Below, piece after piece: positions 12,266 to 28,947 of a stretch of DNA of 38,785 bases. A model generated the notes under the pieces. That model was not told where the DNA came from and did not search any database. It was given only the letters and a program-made list of their open reading frames with translations. The translations under genes were made by a program, and so were the position numbers. Source of the stretch: a bacterium. Lineage in GTDB: Bacteria > Joyebacterota > Joyebacteria > Joyebacterales > Joyebacteraceae. The stretch lies in assembly GCA_025774645.1 (NCBI GenBank), contig JALGVN010000009.1, positions 1 through 38,785 of the forward strand, written 5' to 3'. Each line of letters starts with the position of its first letter. Position 1 is the first letter of the stretch.

Positions 12266-12715
12266 GGTGTGGGCTTCCTTTCGCAGTTCCGCGGGCGTCG
12301 TGCGCCCTCTCCTGTCACCGTGCTCTCTCATGGACTCTCGTCTCCATAAAACAACGTGCCCCGGGCGTATCCGCACGGGTCGACAGCCGCGGAAAGCGCG
12401 GCTCCCCGTACAGACCCGGAGCAATCCCTAGGCCGTTCAGCACGACCGACTCCCTCTTCTCAGCTGACTCTCCTGCCGTCCCCGGCAGCGGTACGCACTG
12501 GCCGCAACATCATGCTGCGGACCGACTTCCACTCTTCTTGACTACAAGTATGAGCAGTAGGCGATGGCTGTGCGTCCTTTCCGAGCCCGCTCTCCGGACG
12601 GAGCCGGTCGCCGCGCCGGTTTCCCACCGTACGCGGACATAAGACGGCCACGCGGCGGGAGCATTCGCATGCGCCCCGCGGCACGGTGACCGTGAGCTTG
12701 TCCCTCTAACTGCCT

Positions 12716-12744
12716 ATAATACCACTATTAATGCGGTTTGTCAA
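12716..12744 (-). promoter_or_regulatory. Sigma70-type promoter for the fibre-protein gene, implying a ~440-nt 5' leader
   Basis: TTGACA-17 nt-TATTAT with extended -10 TG, inside an AT-rich patch. Confidence 0.7.
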
Positions 12745-12857
12745 TGAATCAGGGAGTTCGGCTGGGGACCGGTGGGAGCGGTGCAGAATGCCATCTGGGG
12801 CGGTTCTTGAGGGATCGGAAGGGAAAGGCGCGGTCGGTTGTTGTCGGGAGCCGGCTC

Positions 12858-14075: not shown

Positions 14076-14082
14076 CGTCTCT

Positions 14083-14853
14083 CTAGCTCCTTGGGAATCC
14101 GCCCCGGCTCGCGGGGTCACCGATCTCCGGGACATCCAACGCGTCCTTCGCTGCGTCGCGTCGGTTCTGGTTCACGTGGTCCTCGACGACGACCCCGTCT
14201 CTGAGCGTCACCGTCCGGCTCGTGTACCGGGCGAGGTCGTGTTCGTGTGTGACGACCAGGATCGTGATGCCCTGGGCGTTCAGTTCCTGAAAGAGCGCCA
14301 TGACGTCGAGGGACGTGTGGCTGTCGAGGTTTCCGGTCGGCTCGTCGGCGAGGATGATCGAAGGGCAATTGACGAGCGCGCGGGCGATGGCGACGCGCTG
14401 CTGTTCGCCGCCCGAGAGCTCGCTCGGTTCATGCTCGACCCGATCGCCGAGACCGACGCGCTCGAGCGCCTCGATCGCGGCGGCGCGCGGGTCCTCGATG
14501 CGGGCGGAACGGTCGTAGAAGAGAGGGAGTTCGACGTTGTCGAGCGCCGACGTCCGCGCGAGCAGGTTGAACCCCTGGAAGACGAAGCCGATCTTCTGAT
14601 TTCGGATCTCGGCGAACTCGTCGCCCGTGAGCTCGTGGACATCCACGCCGCCGAGGTGGTACTCACCGGAGGTCGCCGCGTCGAGGCACCCGAGGACGTT
14701 CATGAGCGTCGACTTCCCGGAGCCTGACGCGCCCATGAGCGCCACGAACTCGCCGTCCTCCACGACGAGGTCGACGCCGCGCAGGGCGTGCACGGTGACG
14801 TCACCCATGTGGTAGACCTTTGTGACCCCGCGTGTCTCGATCAGACCGGCCAT
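14083..14853 (-). CDS. MacB/LolD-type ABC ATP-binding protein
   Basis: Walker [39 protein letters not shown]; start taken at MAGLIE (ATG 14853). Confidence 0.93.
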
Positions 14854-14893
14854 CGTGTCATCCTTGAACAGCCTCAACGTTCGACCGCCGCTC

Positions 14894-16201
14894 CTAGATC
14901 CCGCGGCGGAGCGCCCTGCTCGCGGTGCTTCCCCGCGCCGCTTCCTCGCTGACCTTCGTAATGACCTGCGTGCCCTCTTCGATACCGCGCCCGCTCACGA
15001 TCTCCGTCATCCGTCCGTCGGTCGCGCCGACGTCGATCCGCACAGCGTCGAAGTCGCCGTCCTCGCCGAGGATCCAGAGCCGCGTCCCGCCCCACTGCTG
15101 GCCGCCGTGGGCGCCCGACATTCCCGGTGGACCACCGCTGTTTCCCCCCGGCCCGCTCTGCCCGCCGTGGCCGCCACTCTGGGCACCCGGTTGCTTCCCG
15201 TCGCCGCGCCGGCCCATCTTCGCCCTTGTGGAGTCGGGGAGGTTCTCCATGCGCTTCTGCATGCGCGCCCGGAACTCCTCCATCATCTCATCGGAAGGCT
15301 GGAACCTGAACGCGGCGTTCGGCACGAGCAGGACGTCGTGGCGCTCGTCGATCACGAAATCGGTCGTCGCTGTCATGCCGGGGTAGAGAAGTCCCTTCTC
15401 GTTCGCGGCGTCGACGACGGCGGTGTAGGTGACCACGTTCTGCACCGTCTGAGGCTGAAGCCAGATTTGCCGGACCGTGCCCTCGAACATCTCGTCGATG
15501 TACGCCTCCACCGTGAACCGCACCTCCTGGCCGACCTCGATGGCGCCGATGTCGCTCTCGTCCACCTGAGCGTGGATCTCCATCTCCGACAGGTCTTCGG
15601 CGATGACGAACAGCGTCGGAGTGGAGAAGCTCGCCGCGACGGTCTGTCCCGGCTCGACGTTCCTCATGATGACAGTTCCGTCGATGGGGGAGCGGATGAC
15701 GGCGTAGCGCAGGTTCGCCCGCGCGCGATCGAGCGAGGCCTTCGCCGAGATGAGGCTCGCGTGGCCGGTGTCGAGGAGCGTCTGGGCGTCCAGGAACTCC
15801 TGCTCGCTGATGAGGTTGCCCTCTCGCAGGTCGTGCTCGCGCCCGTAGTCGCGCGCCATTTGGTCGTACTGAGCCTCGGACCGCATCACCTCCGCGCTCG
15901 CCTGACGGACGCTTGCGGAGAGCATCGTCGTGTCGAGGACAGCGAGGACCTGCCCCTTCCGCACGCTCTCGTTGTAGTCGACGAGAACCCCGCTGATGGT
16001 CCCCGAGACCTGCGTCCCGACCTCGACCGTCCCGACCGCCGAGAGTGTTCCCGTGCTCGAGATGACGTTCTCGAGATCGCCGCGTTCGATCTCGACGGTC
16101 TCGTAGCGGCTCGCCGCGGCTTCCCCGTCCCGCCCGACGACGTACCAGATGACCAGGACCGCTGCCACTGCCGCGATGGCGATGACGATGAGTCTTTTCA
16201 T
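14894..16201 (-). CDS. Efflux periplasmic adaptor (MacA/HlyD membrane fusion protein)
   Basis: N-terminal anchor; VEVGTQVSG, VxKGQVLA, IRSPIDGTV, VEPGQTVAAS, VDESDIG, PGMTA; start taken at MKRLIV (ATG 16201). Confidence 0.92.
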   Translation of the reverse strand: MKRLIVIAIAAVAAVLVIWYVVGRDGEAAASRYETVEIERGDLENVISSTGTLSAVGTVEVGTQVSGTISGVLVDYNESVRKGQVLAVLDTTMLSASVRQASAEVMRSEAQYDQMARDYGREHDLREGNLISEQEFLDAQTLLDTGHASLISAKASLDRARANLRYAVIRSPIDGTVIMRNVEPGQTVAASFSTPTLFVIAEDLSEMEIHAQVDESDIGAIEVGQEVRFTVEAYIDEMFEGTVRQIWLQPQTVQNVVTYTAVVDAANEKGLLYPGMTATTDFVIDERHDVLLVPNAAFRFQPSDEMMEEFRARMQKRMENLPDSTRAKMGRRGDGKQPGAQSGGHGGQSGPGGNSGGPPGMSGAHGGQQWGGTRLWILGEDGDFDAVRIDVGATDGRMTEIVSGRGIEEGTQVITKVSEEAARGSTASRALRRGI

Positions 16202-16411
16202 TTCGGGGAGATCCTCTCTGAAGGTCTTCGTTCGGGAAGGCCCTCCGCGAGCGAGAGCCTCGATGTTCGGCAAGCTACCATCGTACCACACTCCTCCCGC
16301 GGTCAGGACGGAGATTCTCCTCTCGCGGGCCGCGCGAATCTGCTAGCCTCTGCGCGATGCTGGAGGCGAGTCACCACGGCCGAACGCCATCCACCGGAAA
16401 GCGGGTGAAGA

Positions 16412-19057
16412 ATGTCGAAGCCGAAGGTGAGGTTCGGACGCGGGCGCGCAATCCGCTTCCTGATTCCTCTCTTCCTGATGAGCGGGGCCGCGTCCCTCGT
16501 GTACGAGACGCTCTGGGCGCGGCAGCTCCACGTCGTGTTCGGCACCAGCCAGCTCGCGATCGTGACGGTGCTCTCCGCGTTCATGGGGGGTCTCGCGCTC
16601 GGGAGCTTCGCGGCCGCGCGGTGGGCCGAGCGGACCACGCGCCCCCTTCTCACGTACGCCGTCCTCGAAGCGTTCATAGGAGTCTACGCCCTCGTCTTCC
16701 CGTGGCTCGTCCGCGCAGTCACTCCGGTCTATCTCGGGTTCTGGAGCGCGTTCGAACCCGGCCCGGCCGCCTTCGGCACGTTCCAGTTCATCCTCCTCGG
16801 CATCCTGGTGCTTCCGCCCACTCTCTGCATGGGCGCAACGCTTCCGCTCCTGGCGCGGTTCGTGACGTCCGACCGCACGGAGACCGGTTACCAGGTCGGC
16901 AGGCTCTACGGAGTCAACACTCTCGGTGCGGTCCTCGGCACCGCGCTCGCGGGGTTCGTGCTGCTCCCGCGTTTCGGACTCGCAGCGACGACGTGGGGGA
17001 CGGCCGCGGCGAACGGGGTGCTCGCCCTCCTCGCGCTGGCGCTGTCTCGGGCGAGCGAGCCCGTCGCGTTGGTCGCGTCCGAAGAGCGCGGCGTGTCGAA
17101 GCTGAGCCCGGGCCGATCGGGAGAGGGGAAAAGGACCGGCGCAGAAGTGGCCCCGAAGCGAGACTCGTACCTGGGCCCGCTCCTGCTCGTGGCCGCGCTC
17201 GCCGGCTTCGCCAGTCTCCTCTGCGAGATCGCGTGGTTCCGGCTGCTCGCGCTCACGCTCGGCGGGAGCGCGTACGCGTTCACGATCATGCTCCTCGCGT
17301 TCCTCCTGGGCATCGGGATCGGCGGGTGGGCCGGCGGAAGGCTTGCCGACCGCGACCTCGCGAGAGGAGGCCGGAGGCTCGTCCTCGGGCGCCTCGCCGG
17401 CATCCAGGTGGGGGTCGGTGCTCTCTGCTGGTTCGCAATGCTCCTCTACGGACAGCTGCCGTTCGTCTACGTGTGGCTCTTCGACCGCATGGGCGGCACC
17501 GGCTGGCCCTTCTGGTTCATGCAGCTGGCCATTGCGCTCGGAATCATGATCCTCCCGACGCTCTTCATGGGCGCGACGTTCCCGTATCTCGTCCGCGCTG
17601 CGGCGGGCAGGCCCGACCAGATCAGCCGTCCCGTCGGACGGCTGTACGGAACGAACACGCTCGGCGCGCTTCTGGGTGCGGCCTTCGGTGGTCTCGTCAT
17701 GCTCCCGGCGCTCAACATCCAGGGCACGGTGGTCGCTGCGGCTTCGGTCAACATCGTCGCGTCCGTCCTTGTGGCCGCTCTCGCCGTGACCGCCGGGGGC
17801 AGAGTCCGCGGCGCGGGTTTCCTCGGACGGATGGCTGCCGCCGCGGCCGTGATCCTCCTCATGTTCGTCTTCCGTCCGCCCTGGAACCCCCTGCTCATGG
17901 CATCGGGTCTCTACAAATACGTCTCGGACCTCGAGGACCGCTCGCGCGAGGGAGTGAAGGAGTTCGTACTCACTCCGTTCGACCTGCTGTTCTACGACGA
18001 GGGGTTCTCGTCGGTCGTCACCGTCGCCCTGTCCCACGAAACCGGCAACATCTGGCTCGCCAACAACGGCAAGGTCGACGCGTCGACCGACTCCGATCTG
18101 AGCACGCAGATTCTCAGCGCGCAGCTCCCTCTCCTCATGCGTCCGGACGCTGAGCGTGTTCTCGTCATCGGACTGGCGAGCGGGATCTCGCTCGGCTCGG
18201 TCACGTTGTACGATTCGCCGACCGTCATCGACGTCGTCGAGATCGAGCCGGCCGTGGTCGTGGCGAGCCATTACTTCAACGGGCACAACAACCAGCCGCT
18301 CGATGATCCCCGCGTGCGAGTCATCGTGAACGACGCCCGCAACCACCTCATGCTCACGGGGGACGGAACGTACGACGTCGTCAGCTCGGAACCCTCGAAC
18401 CCCTGGCTCACCGGAGTCTCGAGCCTTTTCACGAAGGAGTTCTTCGAGCTCGGGAAGAGCAAGATGACGCCGGACGGTGTGTGGGCTCAGTGGGTGCAGA
18501 TGTACGGCCTGACGTCTTCCGACCTGAAGTCGATCATCGCGACGTTCGGCGACGTCTTCCACTACGTGGCGCTCTTCCGGATCGACGAGGCCGACCTCGT
18601 GGTTCTGGGAAGCGACGAACCGCTCCCGTTCACTGCGGCGAGCATCGTCGATGTCGTCCAGAGGAACCCGCGGGCCCAGGGCGACTTCGCGCGGCTCGAC
18701 ATGAGGAAGTCGGAGGAGATCGTCGCGCTGTACCTGTTCGGCGAGGCTGCCGTTGCCGAGCTCGGCGTCGGCGTCACGCGAAATACCGACGACAACATGG
18801 TAGTGGAGTACTCGGCGCCGCTTCATCTCCACGAGGAGACCCGGATCGACAACATCGAGATGCTCATGGAGCTCGCTGTGTTGCCGCTCGACGCCGTCGA
18901 AGGGCCGGGGGAGCTCAAGACTCTGGCTGTGGCGTACGAGACGTACGACTGGGATCCGAGGCGCGCGATCGCGGCGGCTGCCGTCGGGAAGGAGCTCTAT
19001 CCCGACGACCCCGACTTCGAGGAGCTTCTCGAGGGCTTTCTGGACGACGCCGACTAG
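16412..19057 (+). CDS. Fused multi-TM (MFS-like) / spermidine-synthase-like SAM-binding protein
   Basis: Duplicated TM halves (SGAASLVYETLW / AGFASLLCEIAW; GRLYGxNTLGA twice); C-terminal Rossmann fold LVIGLASG, VEIEPAV, NDARNHL, YDVVSSEPSNPW, TDDN. Confidence 0.9.
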   Translation: MSKPKVRFGRGRAIRFLIPLFLMSGAASLVYETLWARQLHVVFGTSQLAIVTVLSAFMGGLALGSFAAARWAERTTRPLLTYAVLEAFIGVYALVFPWLVRAVTPVYLGFWSAFEPGPAAFGTFQFILLGILVLPPTLCMGATLPLLARFVTSDRTETGYQVGRLYGVNTLGAVLGTALAGFVLLPRFGLAATTWGTAAANGVLALLALALSRASEPVALVASEERGVSKLSPGRSGEGKRTGAEVAPKRDSYLGPLLLVAALAGFASLLCEIAWFRLLALTLGGSAYAFTIMLLAFLLGIGIGGWAGGRLADRDLARGGRRLVLGRLAGIQVGVGALCWFAMLLYGQLPFVYVWLFDRMGGTGWPFWFMQLAIALGIMILPTLFMGATFPYLVRAAAGRPDQISRPVGRLYGTNTLGALLGAAFGGLVMLPALNIQGTVVAAASVNIVASVLVAALAVTAGGRVRGAGFLGRMAAAAAVILLMFVFRPPWNPLLMASGLYKYVSDLEDRSREGVKEFVLTPFDLLFYDEGFSSVVTVALSHETGNIWLANNGKVDASTDSDLSTQILSAQLPLLMRPDAERVLVIGLASGISLGSVTLYDSPTVIDVVEIEPAVVVASHYFNGHNNQPLDDPRVRVIVNDARNHLMLTGDGTYDVVSSEPSNPWLTGVSSLFTKEFFELGKSKMTPDGVWAQWVQMYGLTSSDLKSIIATFGDVFHYVALFRIDEADLVVLGSDEPLPFTAASIVDVVQRNPRAQGDFARLDMRKSEEIVALYLFGEAAVAELGVGVTRNTDDNMVVEYSAPLHLHEETRIDNIEMLMELAVLPLDAVEGPGELKTLAVAYETYDWDPRRAIAAAAVGKELYPDDPDFEELLEGFLDDAD

Positions 19058-19065: not shown

Positions 19066-20097
19066 CTACCGTCCGAAGAACTTGCGGCGGCCCCTTCGCA
19101 GGAGCGTCTTCGTTCTCTCGCCGAAAGGACCTTCGACGCCCTCCACGACGGTCGCCACCGAGACGCGAGACCATCGCGTGTGCCGGGAGAACGCGTAGAT
19201 CATCGAGGCGAGTCCATCAGGCACGTTGTGCTGCATCCGAATGGCGGGTCCCCCGGGGAGCCGCCGTTTGTTCTTCGTGAGCGTGAGGTTGAAGCGCTCG
19301 TCGAACCGACCGGTCCACGTCTCGACCAGCCGGATGCTCGTTCCGTCCCAGTCGTAGACGGCGGCCGTAGAGCACCTGAGGCGATCGATCATCGTGTCGT
19401 TGTACGACGGGAAGACCCGGAAGATGAGGTTCCCGAGGGAATAGAGCACGCTCGCGTCGCCGATGTCCTCGCCGCCCCCCGTGACGTGGGTGTGGAGACC
19501 GATCACCTGCGCCGCGCCCTCGCGCACGAGTGTCCGCGCACGTTTCCTGACGACCGGCGACGTCGCCATGACGACCTCCCACCCCCAGTGCGCGTAGACG
19601 ACGAGCTTCTCGTCGGGTCTCACGAACGGCGCGACAACGCCTTCGTCCTCGTCGGCGATGAACCCGCCCCACTCACCTTCGACGCGTCTCGGCTTCGTCT
19701 CCGGATACGTGATGCCCACGACCCTGAGCCCCGGGACGAGCTCGACGCTCGGCTGGGCGACCCACCCGAACACGCGGTTCTCTCCGAACGTGGACTGGAG
19801 GGTCTCGACCGTGTGGCGCGCCGCCTCGGCGCCGAAGTCGGTCACGTGGTTGTTCGAGACCGACACGGCGTCGACGCCGAGTCTCCTGAGCTTGTCGATG
19901 ACGCGGGGGTCGACCGAGATCTGGACCTTCTTGTCGGTGTGGCCGAGGGGCTCGAACTTCTCGCCGTCGATCGCCGATTCGAAGTTCGCGACGACCAAGT
20001 CGGCGCCGAGGGCGTCGTGGAAGTTGGGGACGTCGGCGGCCTCCCACGTCGCGAGATCGGTTTCGAGGTTGATGTCGCCGAGGAACGCAATCCTCAT
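19066..20097 (-). CDS. CapA/PgsA-family metallophosphoesterase-fold protein
   Basis: LGDIN, ANFES, SNNHVTDFG, HWGWE, IGLHTHV, YSLGNLIF; start ATG 20097 overlaps the upstream stop (ATGA). Confidence 0.85.
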   Translation of the reverse strand: MRIAFLGDINLETDLATWEAADVPNFHDALGADLVVANFESAIDGEKFEPLGHTDKKVQISVDPRVIDKLRRLGVDAVSVSNNHVTDFGAEAARHTVETLQSTFGENRVFGWVAQPSVELVPGLRVVGITYPETKPRRVEGEWGGFIADEDEGVVAPFVRPDEKLVVYAHWGWEVVMATSPVVRKRARTLVREGAAQVIGLHTHVTGGGEDIGDASVLYSLGNLIFRVFPSYNDTMIDRLRCSTAAVYDWDGTSIRLVETWTGRFDERFNLTLTKNKRRLPGGPAIRMQHNVPDGLASMIYAFSRHTRWSRVSVATVVEGVEGPFGERTKTLLRRGRRKFFGR

Positions 20098-21410
20098 GGA
20101 GTTCTCTCCTGACCGGGCCGCGGTCCGTGTGTCGTGCGCTGCCTCGCCTGGGGACCTCCGTAGATCCCGAGATCGGAGGGACCCCCGTCGGGGTCGGTGA
20201 AGAGCGGGTTCCCGGCGTCGACGCCGGGCGATCCCTCGAGAAGGCGGAAGTCGAGCGTGTCCGCGAAGAGGGGATCGAGGGAGACGTTCCCGTCGACTCC
20301 CGTCAGCTCGTCCATGTCGCGGTAGTCGCCGCCGGCGTTTCCCCAGACGTCGTTGAACGTGATGCCGACGTTCTCCGGGTTCCCGTTCATCCAGATCCCG
20401 ACCGGCGGACAGACCCACTCTTCCCGCCAGCCGTTCCCGACGACGATGTTGTTCGTGAAGAGCCCCGTCGCGACGTCGCTCCAGAGCGCGAACCCGCAGT
20501 TCCCGTTCCTGGCGACGACGTTGTTCGCCGCCTCCATGAACGACTCGCCCGTAATGACGATCCCCCAGCCGAGGTTGTCGAAGATCGCGTTGTTACGGAC
20601 CGTCGCGCGGGAGCTCCCGAACGTGCCGATGCCCTTCCAGTAGCCGGAGATCCGGTTCCGGAGGACGACGGCCGAGGCGTCCCACGTGATGCCGATGCCC
20701 GCGCCGCGTCCGACGGAGATGTCGTTGTCGGCGATGAACGCGACGGCGCCGCGGTATAGCGCGATCCCGTCCCAGCCGTTGTTCCGGATGACGCAGTTCG
20801 TGACCGTGATCTCGGCGCCCTCGCGTCCCATGACGCCGCCGATCCCGACCACCACGTCCTCCAGTCGGTGGTCGTTGTCGACGATCTCGAGACCCGTGAG
20901 CGTGACGCTGCTCCTCCTCACGACGACACCGGCGTCGGTCGCCATGCCGTCGGGGTCCCGCTTTCCTCCGGTAATCCGGAGGTCCGCTACGTGTGAGCTT
21001 CGGCTGTCCACGAAGAGGAGGCCGTACCCGGCGTTCGTCACGAGCACGGTCTCGTCGGGACCGCTCCCGATGAGGTGGATGCCCTTGCCTTCGACGAGGA
21101 ACCCGACGGTCGCCTGGACGTCCGTCACGTGCTCCTCACAGTTGCCACAGAGTGGCTCGGTGAGCTCGGACGGACTCGCTTCGTAGGTTCCCGGGCGGAT
21201 CACCAGGACGTCGCCGTCCGCCGCCACGTCGATCGCGAGCTGGAGGATGCGATACGGGTTGTCGGCGGCACCCGTGCCGGCGACGCCGTCACTGAGGTCG
21301 TCGACGAAGAAGGTCGCCGCCTGCGCGCCGAGCGGGGCGATAGTAAGGAGCCCGCCCGCGACGACGGCAGCGAAGGCGACCGTGCAGAGAACGGCTGCTC
21401 TCGAAGTCAT
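20094..21410 (-). CDS. Secreted right-handed parallel beta-helix (pectin-lyase-fold/NosD-like) protein
   Basis: SD GGAGG; signal peptide MTSRAAVLC...AQA; GTGAADNPYRILQLAID...PGTY start; Asn-ladder repeats; DPLF...GSPGVDAG...DLGIYGGP end; ATGA overlap with the reductase stop. Confidence 0.85.
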   Translation of the reverse strand: MTSRAAVLCTVAFAAVVAGGLLTIAPLGAQAATFFVDDLSDGVAGTGAADNPYRILQLAIDVAADGDVLVIRPGTYEASPSELTEPLCGNCEEHVTDVQATVGFLVEGKGIHLIGSGPDETVLVTNAGYGLLFVDSRSSHVADLRITGGKRDPDGMATDAGVVVRRSSVTLTGLEIVDNDHRLEDVVVGIGGVMGREGAEITVTNCVIRNNGWDGIALYRGAVAFIADNDISVGRGAGIGITWDASAVVLRNRISGYWKGIGTFGSSRATVRNNAIFDNLGWGIVITGESFMEAANNVVARNGNCGFALWSDVATGLFTNNIVVGNGWREEWVCPPVGIWMNGNPENVGITFNDVWGNAGGDYRDMDELTGVDGNVSLDPLFADTLDFRLLEGSPGVDAGNPLFTDPDGGPSDLGIYGGPQARQRTTHGPRPGQERTP

Positions 21411-22771
21411 CGTCCTCCTCTCGTTGCTCGGGTGAGCTCCGTCTTCTGGTGCTCGAGCTGCCCGAGCCAGGAACCGAACCTCGATGGGGTCTCCGGGTAG
21501 TCCAGGTAGAGGGACTGCGTTGCGCTGATGGACCTGGCCGCCCGCATGAGCGTGATCACGAGCGACGGGCGCTTCGCGATCGTCGCGACGAGCCGGACGT
21601 GGGCCGACAGGCGCGCCCCCGCCCCTCGAGCGCCCATCACCTTCTCCACCGCCCCGCGCTTTGCAAGTTCGTGAACGATGAAGTGGACGTCGCGGTCCGG
21701 GAGCGAGTCGAGGAACCTCCGTAAGACCTCGTGCGCGGCGTGCTGCGCGCCCAGCTCCCGCATGAACCGGAGACCGTAGTCCCAGAGGCCGGCGGTCGAG
21801 GTGTCGCCGGTGCCGAGCGCTGCGACCGCGACCTCGGCGGCGATCCCGCCGGCAAGCACGGACGGAGCGATCCCGCCACCGTGGAGGGGATTCGCCTGGC
21901 GGCCCGCGTCCCCGACCGTCATGAACCGGTCGCCGACGAGAGACGGGAGCGGCCTGCGGAGGGGGAGGAGACCCGCCCCCGCATCGATCGGATCGGCGAG
22001 CGTCATCCCCGGCAGCGAGGCTGCGAACTTCCGGTAGCAGTCCTTGAACCGCGACCCCGCTTCGAGGAGAGTGGTGCCGACTCCCACGTTGACGAGACGG
22101 TCTCCCATCGGGAAGACCCACCCGTAACCGCCGCGCGCGCCCTCCGGTCCGACGACGACAAACACCTGCTTGGGGTCCTCGAGATCCTCCGTCGTCGCGG
22201 CGATCTCGCGGTAGGCGATCCCGACGTCTGAGCGATCGAGCGGAGCCGCCTGATGCGACGGGCCTCCGTGCTGGGTGAGGACTGCGCCGTAGCCGGAGGC
22301 GTCGACGACGATCTTCGCCTTGGCGTCCGCTTCCTTGTCGTCGTTCCACCGGAGCCTGACCGTCGCCGAACCCCGGTCGGTCCAACCGAGGCACGAGCAG
22401 CCGTCGATGAGCTCCACGCCGGCCGCCACGGCATCGGCGAGGAGCCGCTGACCGAACGTAAGCCGGTTGAGGATGACCCCCGACTTGTGAGCGTCCATCC
22501 GCACGCTGCCGCCGCCCAGGATGATCGTCCCACCCCAGACCTGGGTGGCCGCCTCGGCCTCGGTCGGCGCCGCGCCGTACTCGCGCATCGTCTCGACGCC
22601 GTCCTCGGTGACGGCGTTGCCGCAGACCTTGCGCCCGACGTCGTGGGCGGACGACCGCTCGACGAGGGCGACGCGCAGCCCGGCCTCCGCGGCCCGGCGT
22701 GCCAGAACACAGCCACCCGGGCCTGCCCCGATGACGAGGAGGTCGATTCTGTCAGGGAGTGCTCGACGCAT
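21407..22771 (-). CDS. Geranylgeranyl reductase family flavoprotein resembling archaeal digeranylgeranylglycerophospholipid reductase
   Basis: GAGPGG FAD motif; RKVCGNAV; GGYGWVFP; VNVGVG; LPLRRPL; GDAGRQANPLHGGGI; C-terminal RPSL...LYLDYP..P...GSW; start taken at MRRALP (ATG 22771). Confidence 0.88.
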   Translation of the reverse strand: MRRALPDRIDLLVIGAGPGGCVLARRAAEAGLRVALVERSSAHDVGRKVCGNAVTEDGVETMREYGAAPTEAEAATQVWGGTIILGGGSVRMDAHKSGVILNRLTFGQRLLADAVAAGVELIDGCSCLGWTDRGSATVRLRWNDDKEADAKAKIVVDASGYGAVLTQHGGPSHQAAPLDRSDVGIAYREIAATTEDLEDPKQVFVVVGPEGARGGYGWVFPMGDRLVNVGVGTTLLEAGSRFKDCYRKFAASLPGMTLADPIDAGAGLLPLRRPLPSLVGDRFMTVGDAGRQANPLHGGGIAPSVLAGGIAAEVAVAALGTGDTSTAGLWDYGLRFMRELGAQHAAHEVLRRFLDSLPDRDVHFIVHELAKRGAVEKVMGARGAGARLSAHVRLVATIAKRPSLVITLMRAARSISATQSLYLDYPETPSRFGSWLGQLEHQKTELTRATRGGR

Positions 22772-22960
22772 GACCGCCGAGCCTACCAGCGCGCGGGCCC
22801 CGCGGTCAATCAGGGCTCCGTCCGCTCGGGCCGAACGGGCGGACTCTCGGGGCAGCGAGCGGCCCCGGAGAGCCGGGCCGATGCGGGCACCTGGGTTCGC
22901 GCGGAGCATCTCAACAGGTGTGACAGAGCTCGTTTGCGCGTACCCTGCCCCTCGCAGGGC

Positions 22961-22989
22961 TTGTAACCGGGCATGGAGTATGCTATTAT
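22961..22989 (+). promoter_or_regulatory. Sigma70-type promoter for the C1 peptidase gene, in the divergent AT-rich spacer
   Basis: TTGTAA-17 nt-TATTAT with extended -10 TG. Confidence 0.6.
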
Positions 22990-23091
22990 GATATTAGTCA
23001 AGCATGTTACGACCGGTCGTCCCCCCGAGCGGCGCAGGGGAAGTCTAGCCTTGAGCCGCCCGGACGGCGTTTAGCGAAGGAGAGGACGAGA

Positions 23092-26000
23092 ATGCTCGCA
23101 CGAGGAAGATGGCTCGCCGTACTGACGACGGTAGCCTTGACGGCTTTCCTCATCGCGCTCCCGCTTGCGACAGCAGGAGCGAAGATCGAACGTGAGGTGA
23201 CTCCCGAGGAGGCCGCGAGGCTCGAGGAGTGGCGGGAGCAGGTCGAACTGAACGGCTATGACTGGGAGGTAGGCCCGACGTCGGTGTCTGACCTCTCGCC
23301 GGAGGAGTTCCAGCAGCTCCTGGGCGACAGAATTCCGCCTCACATCCAGGCGATCTATGACACGCTGAGGCCCGACCCGACCGTCGAACGGATGCGCTTC
23401 CGTTCCGCGTTCGATTGGCGAGACTACGGCAAGGTCACGCCGGCGAAGGACCAGGGTTCCTGCGGGTCCTGCTGGTCGTTCGCCGCGGTCGGCGCCGTCG
23501 AGTCCGGCGTCCTCATCAACAGCGACGTCTTCCTCGACCTTTCCGAGCAGCAGCTCATCGACTGCAACGACGTCGGGTCGGACTGCGACGGCGGCCACTG
23601 CGCGGTCGGCTACAGCATCCACAAAGACCCCGGGGGCGTCACGGAGGAGTGCATTCCCTACATTGCCGACGACGGGCAGTCATGCCGCGAGCGGCTGTGC
23701 GACAAGGTCGCGATCGTCGACGGCGACTCCTACATCGCCAACACCGTCTCGTCGATCAAGTACCAGGTCGAGAACAACGGTCCCATCTCCGTTTCGATCA
23801 CCGCGTACGGCGACCTCTCCGGCTACACCGGAGGCTGCTACCAGCACGCCGGGAACGACCCCACGAACCACGCCGTGGTGATCATCGGTTGGGACGACTC
23901 GCTGTGCAGCGGCAACGGCGCCTGGCTCATCAAGAACAGCTGGGGTCACGGGTGGGGGTTCGGCGGATTCGGTTGGGTCAAATACGGGACGTGCCGAATC
24001 GGCTCGAGCGCGATGAGACCGATCAACGCGCACGCGCCGACGGAACGCTTCGTACCGACCGAGTTCGCGAGCATCCAGGACGCGATCGACAACTCCGAGC
24101 GGGGTGACGTCATCCGCGTCGCGGGCGGGACCTACACCGAGACGATCACCCTCGAGGACTACCGGACGATCCTCGGTGGCTACGATCCCACGTTCACCGT
24201 GCGCGACCCTTCGCTCTACCCGACCGTCATCGACGGGGGCGGCGCGGGGAACGTCATCACGGCATTGAACCTCGACAACATGCGGATCGACGGTTTCGAG
24301 GTCAGGAACTCGGGGCCGATCGGTTACGGCATCTACCTCAGGAACACTGAGGCGAAGGTCCAGAACTGCTACGTCCACGATTGCTGGCGAGGCATCGGCG
24401 TCGCGCCAGGGACGGCCGGCGCGACGGACGGGGAGATCCTGATCGAGTTCACGAAGGTCTCGAACAACACCGATCACGGAGTCTATATGTCCGGCGCTCC
24501 GAACCCCGTGGTGAAGGTCTACTACACTGCGACCAACGGGAACGGCGGCGACGGGATTCACTCCGAGACCACTGTCAACGCCCTCGAGAACAACACGGTG
24601 GGAGCGAACGGCGGCGACGGCATCAGAATCCTCTCGAGCGACGACACCACGATCAAGAACAACATCATCGCCTCGAACGCGGGCTACGGCGTGGCCTGCA
24701 TGACGTCGACCCCGACCCTCACGTACAACGACGTCTGGGACAACACGGCCGGCATGTACAGCGGGTGCTCGGCCGGCGAGGGCTCGATCTCCGTCGACCC
24801 GATCTTCTGCGACGCGCCGGGGGGCGACGTCTCGGTGCACGCTACGTCTCCCACGCTCGGCGCGGGTGAGTTCGGAGGGAACATGGGCGCCCTCGGCATC
24901 GGGTGTCCGGTCGGTCCGCAGGAGCTCGAGGTGGCTCAGCTCGGCGCCTCGCTCGAGATCTCGTGGAGCCCGCCGCCCCCCGAGGAGAGGGCCGACGTCG
25001 ACTACTACATCGTCTACCGCGACACGATGCAGATCCCGAATACCGAAATCGGCACCGTCGACGCTCCGGACACGATGTTCAACGATATCACGATCCCGGC
25101 GTGCATCCCTCACTACTACTGGATCTCGGCGGTCGACACCGAGGGACTCGAGGGCGCGCCCTCGAACAAGGTGAGCGGTGAACTCTGCTACATCGGTCCG
25201 ACGGGCCTCGACGTCACATTCGTCGAGGGGGCGAACGAGATGGCGTGGTCGAGCGGCGACGGTCCGATCGACTACTACGTCGTAGAGCGCTCGACGATCG
25301 TCGATCCGCCCGACTCGGTCGGGTCGGTTCCAGTCGGGGTGACGGAGTTCACCGACCTGTCGACGCTCGACTGCCCGCGCGACAACTACGCCTACCAGAT
25401 CCTGCCCGTCTACGACACAGGCTGGCGGGGCGCCATGTCGGAGAAGGTGACGATCGATCCCGCGCCGTCGCCGCCCTCGGGCATCGTGGCTGAGTGGGTC
25501 GGGAACGACGTGGTCCTCACCTGGGATCCGAACTGCGAGAGCGACTTCCGTCGGTACTGGATCTACCGCGACACGGTTCCGATTGCGCCGCCCCTCAGCT
25601 CCGAGCTGCTTGTCGGCTTCCTGCCCGACACGACGTTCGTAGACGAGGGCCTGAATCCCGAACTCACGTACTTCTACCGCCTCGTCGCGAGCGACGCGGA
25701 CGCGCAGAAGAGCGTCTACTCGGAGCAGATCTACCTCGGGACGGGTGACGTCCTCACCGTGCCGTCGCCCTACGTGACGATCACGGAGGCGATAAACGCG
25801 GCGTCAGCGCTCGACACGATCTTCGTCGGTCCCGGAACCTACAACGAGTCGATCACACTCAAGGACGGCGTTTTCGTGATGAGCACCGACGGCGCGGCGA
25901 CCACCACGATCGCGTGGCCTGGCGGCAACGTTGTCACGGGAGGCGGCCTGAGCGATCTCTCGCTCCTCGAGGGGTTCACGATCGACGGCGGCGGCATCGC

Positions 26001-26742
26001 CTCGAACGGGATCGCGGCGTGGGGAACCTACGTCAGGATCTCCGACTGCGTGGTACAGAACGCTCAGTCCGGCGTCAGCTGTCAGTTCGGCGGGGCGCCG
26101 CTCCTCTTCGGGAACACGTTCACGGGGAATCAGAACGGCGTGTCGGTTGCCGACTCGGCCAGGCCGTTCCTCTCCGGCAACACGTTCAGCGGCAACACGT
26201 TCTGCGGTCTCTACAACGCCGGCGACCCCGGACCGACGATCGGGAGAACGCTTGAGGACGCGAACGACTTCCTCGAGATCGGGCTCTATCACGTCTTCAA
26301 CCTGAGCACCGCCGAGGTCGACGCCGACTACAACTACTGGGGCGACATCTGCGTCGACGACGCGTGGTTCTACGGCGCGGTCGACTATCTGCCGTGGACC
26401 GACGCCGACCACACCGGAATCTACACGGAGTGTTCCAACTCCGTGCCGGAGGACGGACAGGACAAGCCGTTCGTGAGCTACAACTACCCGAATCCCTTCA
26501 ATCCCTCGACGGCCATCAAGTACTCGGTGCCGTCGTCGGGAGGCCGCGTGCGTCTGACGATCTACGACCTCGCGGGCCGCAAGGTGAGGACGCTTGTCGA
26601 CACGCAGCAGGCGCCCGGCGGTCACGTGACGGTCTGGTACGGCCGCGACGACCAGGGGAGGGACCTTGGTTCGGGCGTCTACTTCTACCGTCTCACGATC
26701 GGCGACTATCAGGTCCAGCGGAAGATGGTCATGCTGAAATAG
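23092..26742 (+). CDS. Secreted papain-family (C1A) cysteine protease with two beta-helix domains, FN3 repeats and FlgD-Ig/T9SS-CTD-like C-terminus
   Basis: SD AAGGAGAGG; signal peptide; FDWRD, DQGSCGSCWSFA, LSEQQLIDC, NHAVVIIGW, WLIKNSWG; two VPxxF/YxxIxxAI beta-helix starts; YxVYR/YxY FN3 units; NYPNPFNP...SGVYFYRL...RKMVMLK. Confidence 0.92.
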   Translation: MLARGRWLAVLTTVALTAFLIALPLATAGAKIEREVTPEEAARLEEWREQVELNGYDWEVGPTSVSDLSPEEFQQLLGDRIPPHIQAIYDTLRPDPTVERMRFRSAFDWRDYGKVTPAKDQGSCGSCWSFAAVGAVESGVLINSDVFLDLSEQQLIDCNDVGSDCDGGHCAVGYSIHKDPGGVTEECIPYIADDGQSCRERLCDKVAIVDGDSYIANTVSSIKYQVENNGPISVSITAYGDLSGYTGGCYQHAGNDPTNHAVVIIGWDDSLCSGNGAWLIKNSWGHGWGFGGFGWVKYGTCRIGSSAMRPINAHAPTERFVPTEFASIQDAIDNSERGDVIRVAGGTYTETITLEDYRTILGGYDPTFTVRDPSLYPTVIDGGGAGNVITALNLDNMRIDGFEVRNSGPIGYGIYLRNTEAKVQNCYVHDCWRGIGVAPGTAGATDGEILIEFTKVSNNTDHGVYMSGAPNPVVKVYYTATNGNGGDGIHSETTVNALENNTVGANGGDGIRILSSDDTTIKNNIIASNAGYGVACMTSTPTLTYNDVWDNTAGMYSGCSAGEGSISVDPIFCDAPGGDVSVHATSPTLGAGEFGGNMGALGIGCPVGPQELEVAQLGASLEISWSPPPPEERADVDYYIVYRDTMQIPNTEIGTVDAPDTMFNDITIPACIPHYYWISAVDTEGLEGAPSNKVSGELCYIGPTGLDVTFVEGANEMAWSSGDGPIDYYVVERSTIVDPPDSVGSVPVGVTEFTDLSTLDCPRDNYAYQILPVYDTGWRGAMSEKVTIDPAPSPPSGIVAEWVGNDVVLTWDPNCESDFRRYWIYRDTVPIAPPLSSELLVGFLPDTTFVDEGLNPELTYFYRLVASDADAQKSVYSEQIYLGTGDVLTVPSPYVTITEAINAASALDTIFVGPGTYNESITLKDGVFVMSTDGAATTTIAWPGGNVVTGGGLSDLSLLEGFTIDGGGIASNGIAAWGTYVRISDCVVQNAQSGVSCQFGGAPLLFGNTFTGNQNGVSVADSARPFLSGNTFSGNTFCGLYNAGDPGPTIGRTLEDANDFLEIGLYHVFNLSTAEVDADYNYWGDICVDDAWFYGAVDYLPWTDADHTGIYTECSNSVPEDGQDKPFVSYNYPNPFNPSTAIKYSVPSSGGRVRLTIYDLAGRKVRTLVDTQQAPGGHVTVWYGRDDQGRDLGSGVYFYRLTIGDYQVQRKMVMLK

Positions 26743-27066: not shown

Positions 27067-28947
27067 ATGCGAGTCTGCTATGGAGTGCTGTTCGCGATCG
27101 CGTTCATTCTGGCCGCGCCCTCGCTCTGCGCCGCCCAGGTCTACGTCAGCGACTACTACAGCGGGTACATCTGGAGCTACGCGGACACCGTCGGGACGGT
27201 CATCAATCCCCAGCTCCAGTACTGGGGCCTCAACGACATGGCCCTGAACGAGGACGGGAACCTCATCATCGCCGACGGAAGCCGCGTCATCCTCTACGAC
27301 GTCTCGGAGCAGTTCGAGACCGTTCTCGACGACACGATCTATCTCTTCCCGGCGTACGATGCCTATCCGGACGCGATGAGCGCGGACATCTACGTGGTCC
27401 GCGACTGGACCGGCGAACGCGAGGACGAGACGGCGAGGCTCGAGCCCGAGCTCCAGTATCTCCCGGGAGGCACCGGGCCGGCTGTACCCGCCTACTACTT
27501 CGGCAGTACGGAGCACCCTCTCGAGGTGCAGGTCTGGCCGTTCGGCAACAGCGCGGGGAACATCCTCGTTCTCGGCTTCGACTCCTCCCAGGGGTACTTC
27601 CTCGCGAACTTCGAGCGCACGGATCAGAACGAGTTCAATCGCCTCGATGACCTTTTCAGCGGGGAAGAGCAGACCTTCCACAGCTTCGCGATCACGCCGG
27701 ACGAGGACATCCTCGTTCTTGAAGAGACCAATGGTCTGTACATGCTCGACGACGGAGGACTGGCTCCGTTCGGGCAGCTGCCTCATCTGCAGTGGGCATA
27801 CCAGAAGGTGTCGGTCGGTTCCGACGGAACGATCTACGTGACGGACAATTACACCCTCGTCACTCGGCGCCTCGACGCAGACGGGAACCTCGTTTTCCCG
27901 TCTCTCGACGACGGCATCAACTTCCCGAGTGTTGTCGAGGCCACCGCGTTCACGCCCACGCATCCGGGCGAGGACGTGACGGTCAACCCGGCCGAGGGTG
28001 TGGAGATCCTCTTCGAGGAGGTCCAGGAGGGCGGCTACACGAGCGCGACGCTCACTCCGAGCAACAGCCACACGAGCCCCAACGGGAACAACCTCCCGGC
28101 GTTCGCGAGCCCGCCGGGAGGGCGCGAGGACTTCACCTACGTCGACATCGCGACGGAGAGCGTCTACAGCATGCTCATCCAGGTCGACCTGTACTTCCCG
28201 GGGAGTCGCTTGTTCTACGCCCACGGCACGCAGGACACCTTCCGAGACAGGACGGTCGTCGGGTCGATCGAGGATGCGCGAGGCGTGATCTCGCGCTTCA
28301 GTGAGGTCGTCCTAGCCGAGGACACGCGTCCGCTCTCGACGGTGATCGCCTACAAGTTCGAGAGGCTCATCGGCCTGCTCACGCTGCCGCCGCCGCTCGA
28401 CGACAGCTACTGCCCGTTCGGCTCGATACTCCATCTCCAGCAGCTCGCCGTCAGGGCGGAACAGCTCTACGACACGGTGAGTGCCGACGACGCCATCGAG
28501 CAGCTCGCTCGGATGAACGGTCTCGTGAGGAATCAGTCAGCGTGGTGTCTTCCCGACACGACACCGGACAACGTGGCGGGGGAGATCCTGGCGCGCTCGA
28601 AGACGCTCATGTTCAGCCTGGGTCTCGTGCCCGGCGCGTCTCATGGGACCCGAGGCGATCTGGATGATGTGGTCAAGCGTCTCGCGCTATCGGCGAAGAG
28701 CCCCGCACACGGCTCGTCGACGATCGAGTTCTCGGGGCCGGCGAACGCCGAAGTCACGGCGCGGATCTACAGCGTCTCCGGGCGGCTCGTGACGACGCTC
28801 CACGAGGGACGCTTCTCCGGCGGGTCGGAGAGAGTCGTCTGGGACGGCGCGGACAGCTCCGGACAGCGCGTCGCTGGGGGCGTCTACTTCGTACGGCTCG
28901 AGTCCGAGGACGAGAGCCTTACGTCGAAGGTCGTCCTTCTCAAGTAG
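27067..28947 (+). CDS. Secreted protein: NHL-like beta-propeller, beta-rich middle domain, FIMAH-like helical domain, FlgD-Ig/CTD (paralog 1)
   Basis: SD GGAGG; signal peptide ending AA-QVYVSD; VGSDGTIYVTD NHL-like blade; C-terminal SGRLVTTL...WDG.DSSG.RV.GGVYFVRL. Confidence 0.85.
   Translation: MRVCYGVLFAIAFILAAPSLCAAQVYVSDYYSGYIWSYADTVGTVINPQLQYWGLNDMALNEDGNLIIADGSRVILYDVSEQFETVLDDTIYLFPAYDAYPDAMSADIYVVRDWTGEREDETARLEPELQYLPGGTGPAVPAYYFGSTEHPLEVQVWPFGNSAGNILVLGFDSSQGYFLANFERTDQNEFNRLDDLFSGEEQTFHSFAITPDEDILVLEETNGLYMLDDGGLAPFGQLPHLQWAYQKVSVGSDGTIYVTDNYTLVTRRLDADGNLVFPSLDDGINFPSVVEATAFTPTHPGEDVTVNPAEGVEILFEEVQEGGYTSATLTPSNSHTSPNGNNLPAFASPPGGREDFTYVDIATESVYSMLIQVDLYFPGSRLFYAHGTQDTFRDRTVVGSIEDARGVISRFSEVVLAEDTRPLSTVIAYKFERLIGLLTLPPPLDDSYCPFGSILHLQQLAVRAEQLYDTVSADDAIEQLARMNGLVRNQSAWCLPDTTPDNVAGEILARSKTLMFSLGLVPGASHGTRGDLDDVVKRLALSAKSPAHGSSTIEFSGPANAEVTARIYSVSGRLVTTLHEGRFSGGSERVVWDGADSSGQRVAGGVYFVRLESEDESLTSKVVLLK

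Follow-up and report, generated by a model that had tools for sequence, protein, structure and literature searches.

The lipid divide, which separates archaeal membranes of isoprenoid ethers from bacterial membranes of fatty-acid esters, is central to ideas on early cell evolution, and among natural organisms known so far, bacteria of the FCB group are the leading candidates for mixed membranes. The locus described here raises the question of what role an archaeal-type geranylgeranyl reductase (GGR) may have in an uncultured bacterium of the candidate phylum Eisenbacteria (source genome G000). The reductase gene is located on a contig of 38,785 nucleotides, which was analysed over its whole length and is referred to as the window (Table 1). 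A preliminary description had placed the gene product closer to the enzyme of Sulfolobus acidocaldarius (SaGGR) than to ChlP/BchP or MenJ, and had proposed that the bacterium may saturate isoprenoid, possibly ether, lipids or had acquired the gene from archaea.

Table 1. Features of the reductase locus and of putative partner genes elsewhere in the genome (window positions unless a contig is named)
Feature	Position	Strand	Basis
Long-type geranylgeranyl reductase CDS	21407..22771	(-)	454 aa + stop; stop-free translation
FAD-binding GxGxxG (G15-G20), start of Rossmann domain	22712..22729	(-)	G15, G17, G20 invariant in alignment A1
Cys50 (SaGGR Cys47), KxCG motif	22622..22624	(-)	Aligned to Cys of KPCGDAV
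YGWVFP...GVG (Y216-G232)	22076..22126	(-)	Y216, W218, F220 = SaGGR Y215, W217, F219
NPLHGGG loop (N294-G300)	21872..21892	(-)	N294, H297 = SaGGR N294, H297
C-terminal three-helix extension, ~residues 388-451, with RPSL, LYLDYP, W435	21419..21610	(-)	Model and SaGGR alignment to residue 450
Intergenic region between reductase gene and divergent 1216-aa gene	22772..23091	.	ORF map
418-aa right-handed beta-helix protein	20094..21350	(-)	Pfam Beta_helix 98.7 bits; 56 bp downstream of reductase
1216-aa secreted-type protein: papain-family C1 peptidase, beta-helix, fn3, FlgD_ig C-terminal domain	23092..26742	(+)	Pfam; divergent neighbour
Group II GGGP synthase	C233:20389-21147	(+)	TIGR01769 199.6 vs 161.55; NF003198 280.9 vs 247
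DGGGP-synthase-like UbiA enzyme	C88:5428-6270	(-)	Best full-length: NF009523 201.5 (cut-off 269), NF009521 179.4 (cut-off 296)

Judged from its sequence, the product is a long, Sulfolobus-type GGR flavoprotein that is distinct from ChlP/BchP and MenJ. An upstream ATG at 22909, which would give 500 amino acids, was rejected as the start, because close homologues have 443-456 amino acids and, when aligned, start level with the Met at 22771. The protein scores above the cut-offs of TIGR02032 (188.6 bits against 158.8) and Pfam GGR_cat PF22578 (42.6 against 27), and far below those of TIGR02023 for BchP-ChlP (72.3 against 343.3), TIGR02028 (23.8 against 505.3) and NF045655 for MenJ (48.4 against 700). 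The preference for the Sulfolobus type was borne out by NF041080 ('digeranylgeranylglycerophospholipid reductase'), the model that corresponds to SaGGR (PDB 3ATQ, 3ATR, 4OPC and others), on which residues 9-445 cover model positions 2-442 of 447 with 282.6 bits, compared with 72 and 48 bits for the other two families. The equivalog cut-off of 580 bits is missed; among the controls it was passed by Sulfolobus acidocaldarius only, and just 20 of 101 sampled Thermoproteota genomes pass it, so that it marks a narrow core and not the whole long subfamily. Full-length Thermoproteota proteins score as low as 288-320 bits, near the value of the Eisenbacteria protein, and the 72 of the 101 genomes that match at E<=1e-60 have exactly one match each to the long subfamily. 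HMMER aligned query residues 8-448 with residues 6-450 of PDB chains 3atq/4opu (SaGGR) at E 2e-58 to 3e-58, which is far beyond chance as a sequence match, and the two proteins (454 and 453 amino acids) align end to end. The Sulfolobus blocks cited in the preliminary description (KPCGDAV, DVAYREV, GGYWWYFP, VPTRRPL, NPVHGGG, GDFSASGLW and RPSL...LYLNYP...GSW) proved correct in this alignment and keep their order, and the translation contains all of the motifs listed for the new protein, namely GAGPGG, GRKVCGNAV, DVGIAYREI, GGYGWVFP, VNVGVG, LPLRRPL, NPLHGGG, GDTSTAGLW, RRFL and RPSL...LYLDYPETPSRFGSW.

The motif set of the superfamily, which we take to be GxGxxG, a Cys that follows the first beta-alpha-beta unit, and YxWxFP with a GxG after it, is complete, and Cys47 of SaGGR presumably sits next to FAD. 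The GxGxxG motif, C50, Y216-G-W-V-F-P221 and G230-V-G232 are invariant in alignment A1 and in all 22 Eisenbacteria rows, and the Cys is also found in 96 of 97 archaeal rows. Equivalents of SaGGR C47, Y215, W217, F219, P220, the Arg of RRP and H297 are likewise kept in 22/22 Eisenbacteria rows, and position 294 is occupied by N in 16 rows and by S in the other 6. According to excerpts of PMC9385802, Y215, W217 and F219 of SaGGR separate its two lipid pockets and hold the double bond in place, N294 and H297 contact phosphate, and the anionic head group is contacted by H55, N294, H297, Y340 and K343. The G000 reductase retains N294 and H297 and has G, L and Q at the H55, Y340 and K343 positions, which are replaced throughout the 22 Eisenbacteria rows (G/A, I/L/M/V and P/R/A/Q/Y, respectively); Y340 and K343 vary in archaeal members too, and H55 is His in 68/97 archaeal rows. 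The replacement of Pro by Arg in PxxYxWxFP, from which a different substrate preference had been suggested, is real and clade-wide, as the position is R in 10, E in 5, G in 3, A in 2, L in 1 and C in 1 of the 22 rows, compared with Pro in 94 of 97 archaeal rows.

The AF2 model (pLDDT 87.3, pTM 0.89) has the two-domain PHBH-like fold of SaGGR together with its C-terminal three-helix extension (Foldseek against 3atq: TM 0.88, rmsd 2.8 A, 28-29% identity). Helices span residues 388-398, 402-423 and 429-451, and P426 and W435 in this tail are invariant among the aligned homologues. The extension is a mark of the long, SaGGR-type subfamily; in SaGGR the 60 extra C-terminal residues form three helices (PMC9385802, in part). 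It is lacking in the short archaeal GGRs, such as Thermoplasma acidophilum Ta0516 (PDB 3OZ2; TMq 0.73, sequence match E 1e-27) and Methanosarcina acetivorans MA_1484 with its ferredoxin MA_1485, which share the superfamily and the catalytic motif and carry out the same reaction on DGGGP-type lipids, as described in portions of PMC9385802 and PMC8941075. ChlP/BchP (geranylgeranyl-(bacterio)chlorophyll / GGPP reductase) and MenJ (menaquinone reductase) share the TIGR02032 superfamily, the FAD Rossmann domain and the reaction type, but their profiles align to about residue 350 or less, leaving no counterpart of the tail.

Genes that might supply an ether-lipid substrate are present elsewhere in G000. 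The best solved relative of its GGGP synthase (GGGPS) is an archaeal group II GGGPS (4mm1, E 2e-53), heptaprenylglyceryl-phosphate synthases reaching 6e-4. The UbiA enzyme on contig C88 matches the M. jannaschii DGGGP synthase (DGGGPS) 6m31 over its full length (E 1e-31 over 8-280; next match 2e-6), and by sequence its closest family is that of DGGGP synthases, but it scores under the curated cut-offs. Another UbiA gene, 3.3 kb from the GGGPS gene on C233, was discarded as a DGGGPS candidate, being of the decaprenyl-phosphate phosphoribosyltransferase type (NF008977, 271.6 against 234). Of the four pathway enzymes to which the preliminary description had pointed, GGGPS and a candidate DGGGPS are represented, and the other two, CarS and G1P dehydrogenase (G1PDH), were not found: in this genome, which is 80.6% complete, the sole CarS-like match is CdsA, and there is no Fe-ADH_2 match. 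Across 31 Eisenbacteria genomes a single Fe-ADH_2 match is over the cut-off, in G002, and it was rejected as G1PDH since it is an AroK-AroB fusion. G000 also encodes CdsA, Dxr, two polyprenyl synthases and a MenA-like prenyltransferase, and neighbouring PlsY and GpsA genes on C169 provide the bacterial ester-lipid route. Orthologues of the reductase are found in 31/31 Eisenbacteria genomes, the UbiA enzyme in 29/31 and GGGPS above cut-off in 24/31. One exception is genus g4, all five genomes of which (87-97% complete) have the reductase and the UbiA enzyme, whereas GGGPS is found in 0/5 by TIGR01769 or Pfam PcrB; the reductase is therefore not strictly dependent on GGGPS. A crude screen of G000 for a tetraether synthase (ORFs of at least 420 aa, CxxxCxxC, low Arg) left eight, and none of the four compared with NCBIfam was so named; a search for large radical-SAM genes beside archaeal GGRs gave only four ORFs of about 402 aa.

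Given these genes, the reading we favour, at slightly better than even confidence, is that the product is an active geranylgeranyl (polyprenyl) reductase which depends on FAD and whose most likely task is to saturate geranylgeranyl chains in ether lipids. If it works as SaGGR does, reduced FAD in the GxGxxG Rossmann domain would hydrogenate isoprenoid C=C bonds. The isoprenoid chain would thread into the catalytic pocket, where W218 and F220 may position it, and Y216 and the N294-H297 loop may part this pocket from a second one for the other chain of a two-tailed lipid. The substrates would be ether lipids that the cell builds with its group II GGGPS and DGGGP-synthase-like prenyltransferase; the saturated product would then be activated by CdsA, and the cell would make archaeol-like lipids alongside ordinary PlsY-made ester lipids. 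The data show the fold, the catalytic residues, conservation throughout the phylum and the joint occurrence of the pathway genes. We infer the substrate and likewise the glycerol-phosphate stereochemistry, the search for a G1P dehydrogenase having found none, and the electron donor, as no ferredoxin gene adjoins the reductase. No ferredoxin motif (C..C..C...CP) occurs in the window, on C129 or on C88; the nearest one is on C233, about 10 kb from GGGPS, and a match on C282 lies within the region of the frr-uppS-cdsA-dxr cluster, outside all plausible genes listed there. The suggestion of ether-lipid saturation is strengthened by the presence of GGGPS and the DGGGPS-like enzyme, and excerpts of PMC9385802 report that SaGGR fully reduces ether-committed geranylgeranyl groups.

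Several observations count against this role, and some of them would suit a genuine long-type polyprenyl reductase that acts on another substrate, for example GGPP (converted to phytyl-PP), the side chain of menaquinone, or a phosphate carrier of a polyprenyl or dolichol-like kind; this serious contender falls clearly short of an even chance. GGRs are promiscuous (PMC9385802, in part), and archaeal GGR paralogues have been proposed to act on quinones, polyprenols and carotenoids (excerpts of PMC10821996). The reductase is retained by g4, and long GGRs occur in two unrelated bacterial genomes, G179, with no PcrB match, and G152, with only a 40-residue partial one (24.8 bits). The H55, Y340 and K343 contacts are replaced, the NF041080 score lies well below its cut-off, and G1PDH and CarS were not found. 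The three lipid genes are scattered over three contigs (C109, C233 and C88), and beside them no lipid or ferredoxin gene was found except that for BacA/UppP (undecaprenyl-diphosphatase), directly after the DGGGPS-like UbiA gene; this gene and the MenA-like prenyltransferase would fit another substrate. On the other side, the subfamily, with its one match per matching Thermoproteota genome, includes the characterised lipid reductase SaGGR, and the GGGPS and DGGGPS-like enzymes accompany the reductase in the majority of Eisenbacteria genomes. A further GGR-family paralogue of the short kind, present in 29/31 genomes, bears on both readings: it could be the lipid reductase instead, but it scores better than the long GGR on BchP-ChlP (115 bits against 72) and MenJ (89.5 against 48), making the short enzyme the more natural candidate for other substrates.

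That the protein is a generic PHBH-fold flavin monooxygenase or halogenase merely resembling GGR is very improbable. The Pfam and PDB matches to FAD_binding_3, halogenases and FixC on which such a view would draw are weak (E 1e-6 to 1e-10 and TM 0.5-0.69, against 3e-58 and 0.88 for SaGGR), GGR_cat is above its cut-off, and the protein has the Cys, the YxWxFP motif and the C-terminal tail that are specific to GGR. Weaker still, an archaeal contaminant or chimeric contig misbinned into a bacterial MAG might be suspected from the fragmented assembly (365 contigs, 2.5% contamination) and from the best 80 loci, of which the 59 outside the Eisenbacteria clade are all archaeal, but it is for practical purposes refuted by the orthologues in every genome of the phylum, which stem from many independent studies, and by the same divergent neighbour in 19/21 loci, and it is further opposed by the window itself, which has FlgD_ig C-terminal domains in four proteins, ABC transporters, a Ser/Thr kinase, no archaeal signature genes seen, and a GC content of 0.70 at the gene against 0.62-0.70 across the window and 0.666 in the genome, and by the just 29-37% identity of the clade to archaeal proteins.

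The divergent neighbour, the 1216-aa gene, is 39-89% identical among the Eisenbacteria loci in which it adjoins the reductase, and its conservation is taken as a sign of stable vertical inheritance, without implying that the two genes share a function. The region between the two genes presumably holds the promoters of both; it has one sigma-70-like site, on the plus strand only (22961-22989), a consensus match that carries no evidence of function. The 418-aa beta-helix gene, which directly follows the reductase in 10 of 21 Eisenbacteria loci, is possibly co-transcribed with it. The beta-helix protein has no known link to lipids.

Outside Eisenbacteria the long-GGR family is mainly archaeal (Thermoproteota, Asgard and Undinarchaeota). 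In a tree of 78 rows, which is without named ChlP, BchP or MenJ sequences, 66 rows form the long-GGR clade (support 100/99), which contains the Eisenbacteria clade, and the short GGRs that these archaeal and Eisenbacteria genomes also encode branch outside it. A long stem leads to the single clade that the Eisenbacteria proteins make up; with weak support (75/78) this clade is the sister group of the sampled archaeal long GGRs as a whole, and it lies within no archaeal phylum. The AU test rejected a tree that grouped Eisenbacteria with every Thermoproteota and Bathyarchaeia row (delta lnL 257, p 1.4e-40), but the group was chosen after the tree was seen and forces non-clade archaeal rows together, so that the result says little on a donor. 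The earlier suggestion that the gene was acquired from archaea thus stands as plausible and is undemonstrated, given the phylum-wide occurrence and the un-nested, long-stemmed sister clade. A more far-reaching scenario, which as a whole appears unlikely, would have Eisenbacteria vertically keep a GGGPS/DGGGPS-like/long-GGR route and make fully saturated archaeol-type diethers beside ester lipids, probably on a G3P backbone because no G1P dehydrogenase was found. The reductase would have parted from the archaeal long GGRs before those sampled from Thermoproteota, Asgard archaea and Undinarchaeota diverged from one another, as an ancient bacterial lineage or by very early transfer and not as a recent import, and independently of the Euryarchaeota-like GGRs of Cloacimonetes.

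[quoted passage not shown] 2021 (ISME J, PMC7852524); according to excerpts of that paper, GGGPS, a DGGGPS homologue and GGR accompany the bacterial fatty-acid lipid route there too, CarS and G1PDH are missing and CdsA is a possible stand-in. The two cases differ in that the Cloacimonetes GGGPS and DGGGPS genes are co-localized, compared with separate contigs in G000, and in that the Cloacimonetes GGR is Euryarchaeota-like, whereas that of Eisenbacteria is of the long type common to Thermoproteota and Asgard archaea. 'Eisenbacteria' is absent from the main text of that paper, the supplementary trees and tables of which may include the phylum. The trait is therefore already published for FCB-group bacteria, and Eisenbacteria, itself an FCB-related candidate phylum, add one more phylum to a concept that is not new.

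What is added is a further candidate phylum with the saturating enzyme in every genome examined, and that enzyme belongs to the 'long' type of TACK/Asgard archaea instead of the Euryarchaeota-like type. A long GGR can, moreover, persist where GGGPS is missing, and genus g4 compared with the rest of the phylum offers a natural comparison for reductase function in bacteria. The protein is also a concrete enzyme with which DGGGP and other prenyl substrates may be compared, with or without ferredoxin.

A real, well-conserved long geranylgeranyl reductase (long GGR) of archaeal type is encoded in a bacterial phylum, the Eisenbacteria (GTDB Joyebacterota). The copy in the window belongs to a metagenome-assembled genome of 2.85 Mb in 365 contigs (GC 0.666, 80.6% complete, 2.5% contamination). 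The motifs listed in the preliminary description are all found in the 454-residue translation, and the blocks that it listed for the Sulfolobus acidocaldarius enzyme (SaGGR) were right, as they occur in identical order in a HMMER alignment of residues 8-448 of the window protein with residues 6-450 of the PDB 3atq/4opu chain (E 2e-58 to 3e-58). An alternative start at an ATG at 22909, which would give 500 residues, is unlikely because the first Met of the homologues aligns with the Met at 22771; the nearest homologues are 443-456 residues long. The features discussed here are compiled in the table below.

Coordinates of the reductase genes, their neighbours in the window and related loci elsewhere (the host genome is G000; G152 and G179 are bacterial genomes of other families)
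Feature	Location	Strand	Description
Long GGR	window, 21407-22771	-	open translation, 454 aa
First ORF of window	window, 5-1996		FlgD_ig at its end
Long ORF	window, 6950-12424	-	1824 aa, without Pfam family
Long ORF	window, 12738-14204	+	488 aa, without Pfam family
Long ORF	window, 14822-16408	+	528 aa, without Pfam family
881-aa protein	window, 16412-19057	+	long N-terminal part and spermidine/spermine-synthase domain (Pfam 64 bits)
1216-aa protein	window, 23092-26742	+	papain-family C1 peptidase, two beta-helix regions, fn3, C-terminal FlgD_ig
Two tandem paralogues, ~625 aa	window, 27067-28947 and 29309-31186	+	DUF6689 and C-terminal FlgD_ig each
Long ORF	window, 37204-38580	+	458 aa, without Pfam family
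Short GGR paralogue	G000 C129:4575-5756, locus L021	-	394 aa, TIGR02032 195.6 bits
DGGGPS-like UbiA and BacA/UppP	G000 C88:4584-6270, locus L022	-	same strand, adjacent
Long GGRs of G152 and G179	G152 C160, C325; G179 C41, C35; loci L181-L184		NF041080 195-243 bits

Family models place the window protein among the geranylgeranyl reductases. Pfam returned GGR_cat at 42.6 bits (cut-off 27) along with generic FAD-domain matches, and the superfamily model TIGR02032 was passed with 188.6 bits (cut-off 158.8). The digeranylgeranylglycerophospholipid reductase model NF041080 aligned over positions 2-442 of 447 with 282.6 bits, against an equivalog cut-off of 580. This cut-off is narrow, since it was reached by S. 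acidocaldarius alone among 14 control genomes and in 20 of 101 sampled Thermoproteota genomes, 72 of these 101 having a single match at E<=1e-60; full-length Thermoproteota scores reach down to 288-320 bits, and the window protein falls at the low end of the archaeal scores. The NCBIfam models for BchP-ChlP and MenJ gave 72 and 48 bits, and the separation from these families rests on model scores, as the tree described below holds no named ChlP, BchP or MenJ sequence. An AlphaFold2 model, built from an input alignment of 16 sequences, had a mean pLDDT of 87.3 and a pTM of 0.89, with disorder confined to residues 376-392 and three predicted C-terminal helices (388-398, 402-423 and 429-451). In a Foldseek search the top ranks were taken by six SaGGR entries (3atq: TM 0.88, rmsd 2.8 Å over 454 columns), followed by the short Thermoplasma GGR 3oz2 (TMq 0.73) and then by FixC and halogenases (0.5-0.69). 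We conclude that the window protein is a member of the long GGR subfamily.

Two genes only pass TIGR02032 in the host genome, the long GGR of the window (contig C109) and a short paralogue on C129, which scores 115 bits with BchP-ChlP and 89.5 bits with MenJ. The GTDB phylum comprises 31 species genomes of one family, and the long GGR was found in all of them at 42-86% identity, its gene being split in three (over two contigs in G024, in two frames in G004, and in two segments of one frame in G021). The short paralogue is present in 29 of the 31, and nine genomes have both genes on one contig with 22-26 kb between them. A search of a 5.8-billion-protein collection gave at least 43% identity in 82 of the 120 matches listed, the named organisms here being "Candidatus Eisenbacteria" (5) and "bacterium" (1); the matches listed then show a gap from E 1e-104 to 1e-63, below which identity is 28-35% and the names, where given, are Asgard archaea and once "archaeon". 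The species-representative genomes yielded 585 confirmed relatives, of which the best 80 comprise 21 bacterial loci at 41-86% identity, titled Candidatus Eisenbacteria (10) or "bacterium" or "uncultured bacterium" (11), and 59 archaeal loci at 29-37% identity from Bathyarchaeia, Thor-, Prometh-, Hod-, Hermod- and Helarchaeota, Undinarchaeota and plain "archaeon".

The divergent gene for the 1216-residue protein adjoins the long GGR in 19 of the 21 Eisenbacteria loci, and a beta-helix gene lies downstream in 10 of the 21. With this shared neighbour, a reductase in every genome of the phylum and a GC content of 0.70 in the gene region, inside the range of the window, an archaeal contaminant or chimeric contig can in practice be excluded. 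The 1216-residue protein is better conserved than the adjoining reductase, with 50-89% identity in 18 of the 19 matching loci. The recurrence of FlgD_ig suggests that the window may encode a protein family, secreted or exposed on the surface, with a common sorting domain. In the 881-residue protein the N-terminal part looks hydrophobic, and a relative from the same genus (locus L050) has 64% identity. Pfam at E<=1e-4 found no family in the four long ORFs, bar one sub-threshold match, and some of them may be spurious frames, given the 67% GC of the genome.

The origin of the gene was approached with a tree of 78 rows. Besides the window protein it contained Eisenbacteria loci (16 of 21), named archaeal loci (26 of 59) and three sets of Thermoproteota sequences: 9 of the 20 that exceed the NF041080 cut-off, 6 of 10 taken from just below it, and 9 further low-scoring ones. 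The outgroup consisted of 11 short paralogues drawn from the same genomes of archaea and Eisenbacteria. In the careful run (IQ-TREE, LG+C20+F+G4 PMSF) the long GGRs formed one clade of 66 rows (support 100/99), within which the 17 Eisenbacteria rows formed one clade (100/100) whose stem measures 1.15 changes per site. The archaeal long GGRs of the tree, taken together, came out as its sister group with a support of 75/78 only, and a quick tree did not separate the three deepest lineages, which formed a polytomy. When 90 bacterial genomes of other families were surveyed, G152 and G179 each proved to carry two full-length long GGRs, and nine more genomes matched model positions 1 to about 330-367 only. 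The four full-length copies formed a long-branched clade of their own (99) between Eisenbacteria and archaea in a quick tree, a placement with values of 87 and 82 by SH-aLRT only. The long GGR tree is at real risk of long-branch attraction to its distant outgroup. We conclude that the Eisenbacteria copies have a single origin. The acquisition from archaea put forward in the preliminary description remains the simpler reading, as the sampled family is mainly archaeal, but no donor lineage can be named from the 78-row tree or the quick trees.

Residue roles described in the review PMC9385802, in the sections on SaGGR, were mapped through the alignment (SaGGR numbering) and counted over every available row, 22 from Eisenbacteria and 97 from archaea, the latter including two genomes twice (L070=L149, L082=L152). 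C47, Y215, W217, F219, P220, the Arg of RRP and H297 are conserved in all 22 Eisenbacteria rows, and the N294 position holds Asn in 16 and Ser in 6; by these counts the catalytic machinery is intact. The phosphate contact H55 is Gly or Ala in all 22 rows and His in 68 of the 97 archaeal rows; Y340 is replaced by I/L/M/V and K343 by P/R/A/Q/Y, both positions being variable in archaea too. The lost first Pro of PxxYxWxFP, already noticed in the window protein, is real and clade-wide, the residue being absent from all 22 Eisenbacteria rows and present in 94 of the 97 archaeal ones. The head-group side of the pocket has a make-up specific to the Eisenbacteria clade.

Among the partner genes named in the preliminary description, GGGP synthase (GGGPS) was recovered on contig C233 of the host genome, between alaS directly upstream and a nucleotidyltransferase gene, and adjoins neither reductase. 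It passes TIGR01769 and NF003198, and its nearest solved relative is the archaeal group II enzyme 4mm1 (E 2e-53), whereas heptaprenylglyceryl-phosphate synthases match at about 6e-4. For DGGGP synthase (DGGGPS) there is a candidate: of seven UbiA-family matches over the Pfam cut-off, the C88 protein can be aligned from end to end with the DGGGPS models and matches the M. jannaschii enzyme 6m31 at E 1e-31 (next, chlorophyll synthase at 2e-6), but its 201.5 and 179.4 bits are both below cut-off. The gene directly after it encodes BacA/UppP (undecaprenyl-diphosphatase, 264 bits), a pairing that hints at polyprenyl-phosphate metabolism. Another UbiA gene, near the C233 GGGPS, is of the decaprenyl-phosphate phosphoribosyltransferase type and was rejected as DGGGPS. 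CarS was not found in the host genome, where the sole CarS-like match is CdsA within an frr-uppS-cdsA-dxr cluster, nor was an Fe-ADH_2/G1P dehydrogenase (G1PDH) gene in this 80.6% complete assembly; the lone Fe-ADH_2 match over cut-off among the 31 genomes of the phylum is an AroK-AroB fusion. The genome also carries two polyprenyl synthases, and PlsY and GpsA genes adjacent to each other. Over the phylum, GGGPS exceeds its cut-off in 24 of the 31 genomes and the DGGGPS-like enzyme is present in 29.

The saturation of isoprenoid ether lipids is, by a modest measure, the favoured role of the long GGR, and action on another prenyl substrate is a less probable though serious alternative. These weights reflect several observations against a simple ether-lipid reading. 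One genus of the phylum (G012-G016, five genomes, 87-97% complete) has kept the long GGR, the short GGR and the DGGGPS-like UbiA, and GGGPS was found in none of the five by TIGR01769 or Pfam PcrB; either a different enzyme opens the pathway there, or the reductases and UbiA serve another product. A clear GGGPS is likewise missing from the two genomes of other families with full-length long GGRs, as PcrB had no match in G179 and a partial one of 40 residues in G152. The remainder of the window holds nothing lipid-related among its annotated ORFs and no ferredoxin motif, and the head-group contacts are changed. Finally, GGRs are described as promiscuous in PMC9385802, and archaeal paralogues have been proposed to act on other terpenoids in PMC10821996.

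In the passages of Villanueva et al. 2021 (PMC7852524) that deal with these genes, Ca. Cloacimonetes carry GGGPS, a DGGGPS homologue and a GGR next to the bacterial route to fatty-acid lipids and are without CarS and G1PDH, and GGGPS and DGGGPS homologues with TACK affinity co-occur in further FCB-group and related candidate phyla. The name Eisenbacteria is absent from the main text of that paper, whose supplementary trees and tables may include such sequences. Full-text literature searches gave nothing for Eisenbacteria together with geranylgeranyl; with "ether lipid" they gave a clubroot rhizosphere metagenome only, unrelated by its title and abstract, and among the papers listed for GGGP, DGGGP, isoprenoid or archaeol none names Eisenbacteria. 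The kind of finding made here has been published before for Cloacimonetes. What is notable is the type of reductase, the Eisenbacteria long GGR differing from the Euryarchaeota-like GGR reported for Cloacimonetes in PMC7852524, and its persistence in one genus without GGGPS.
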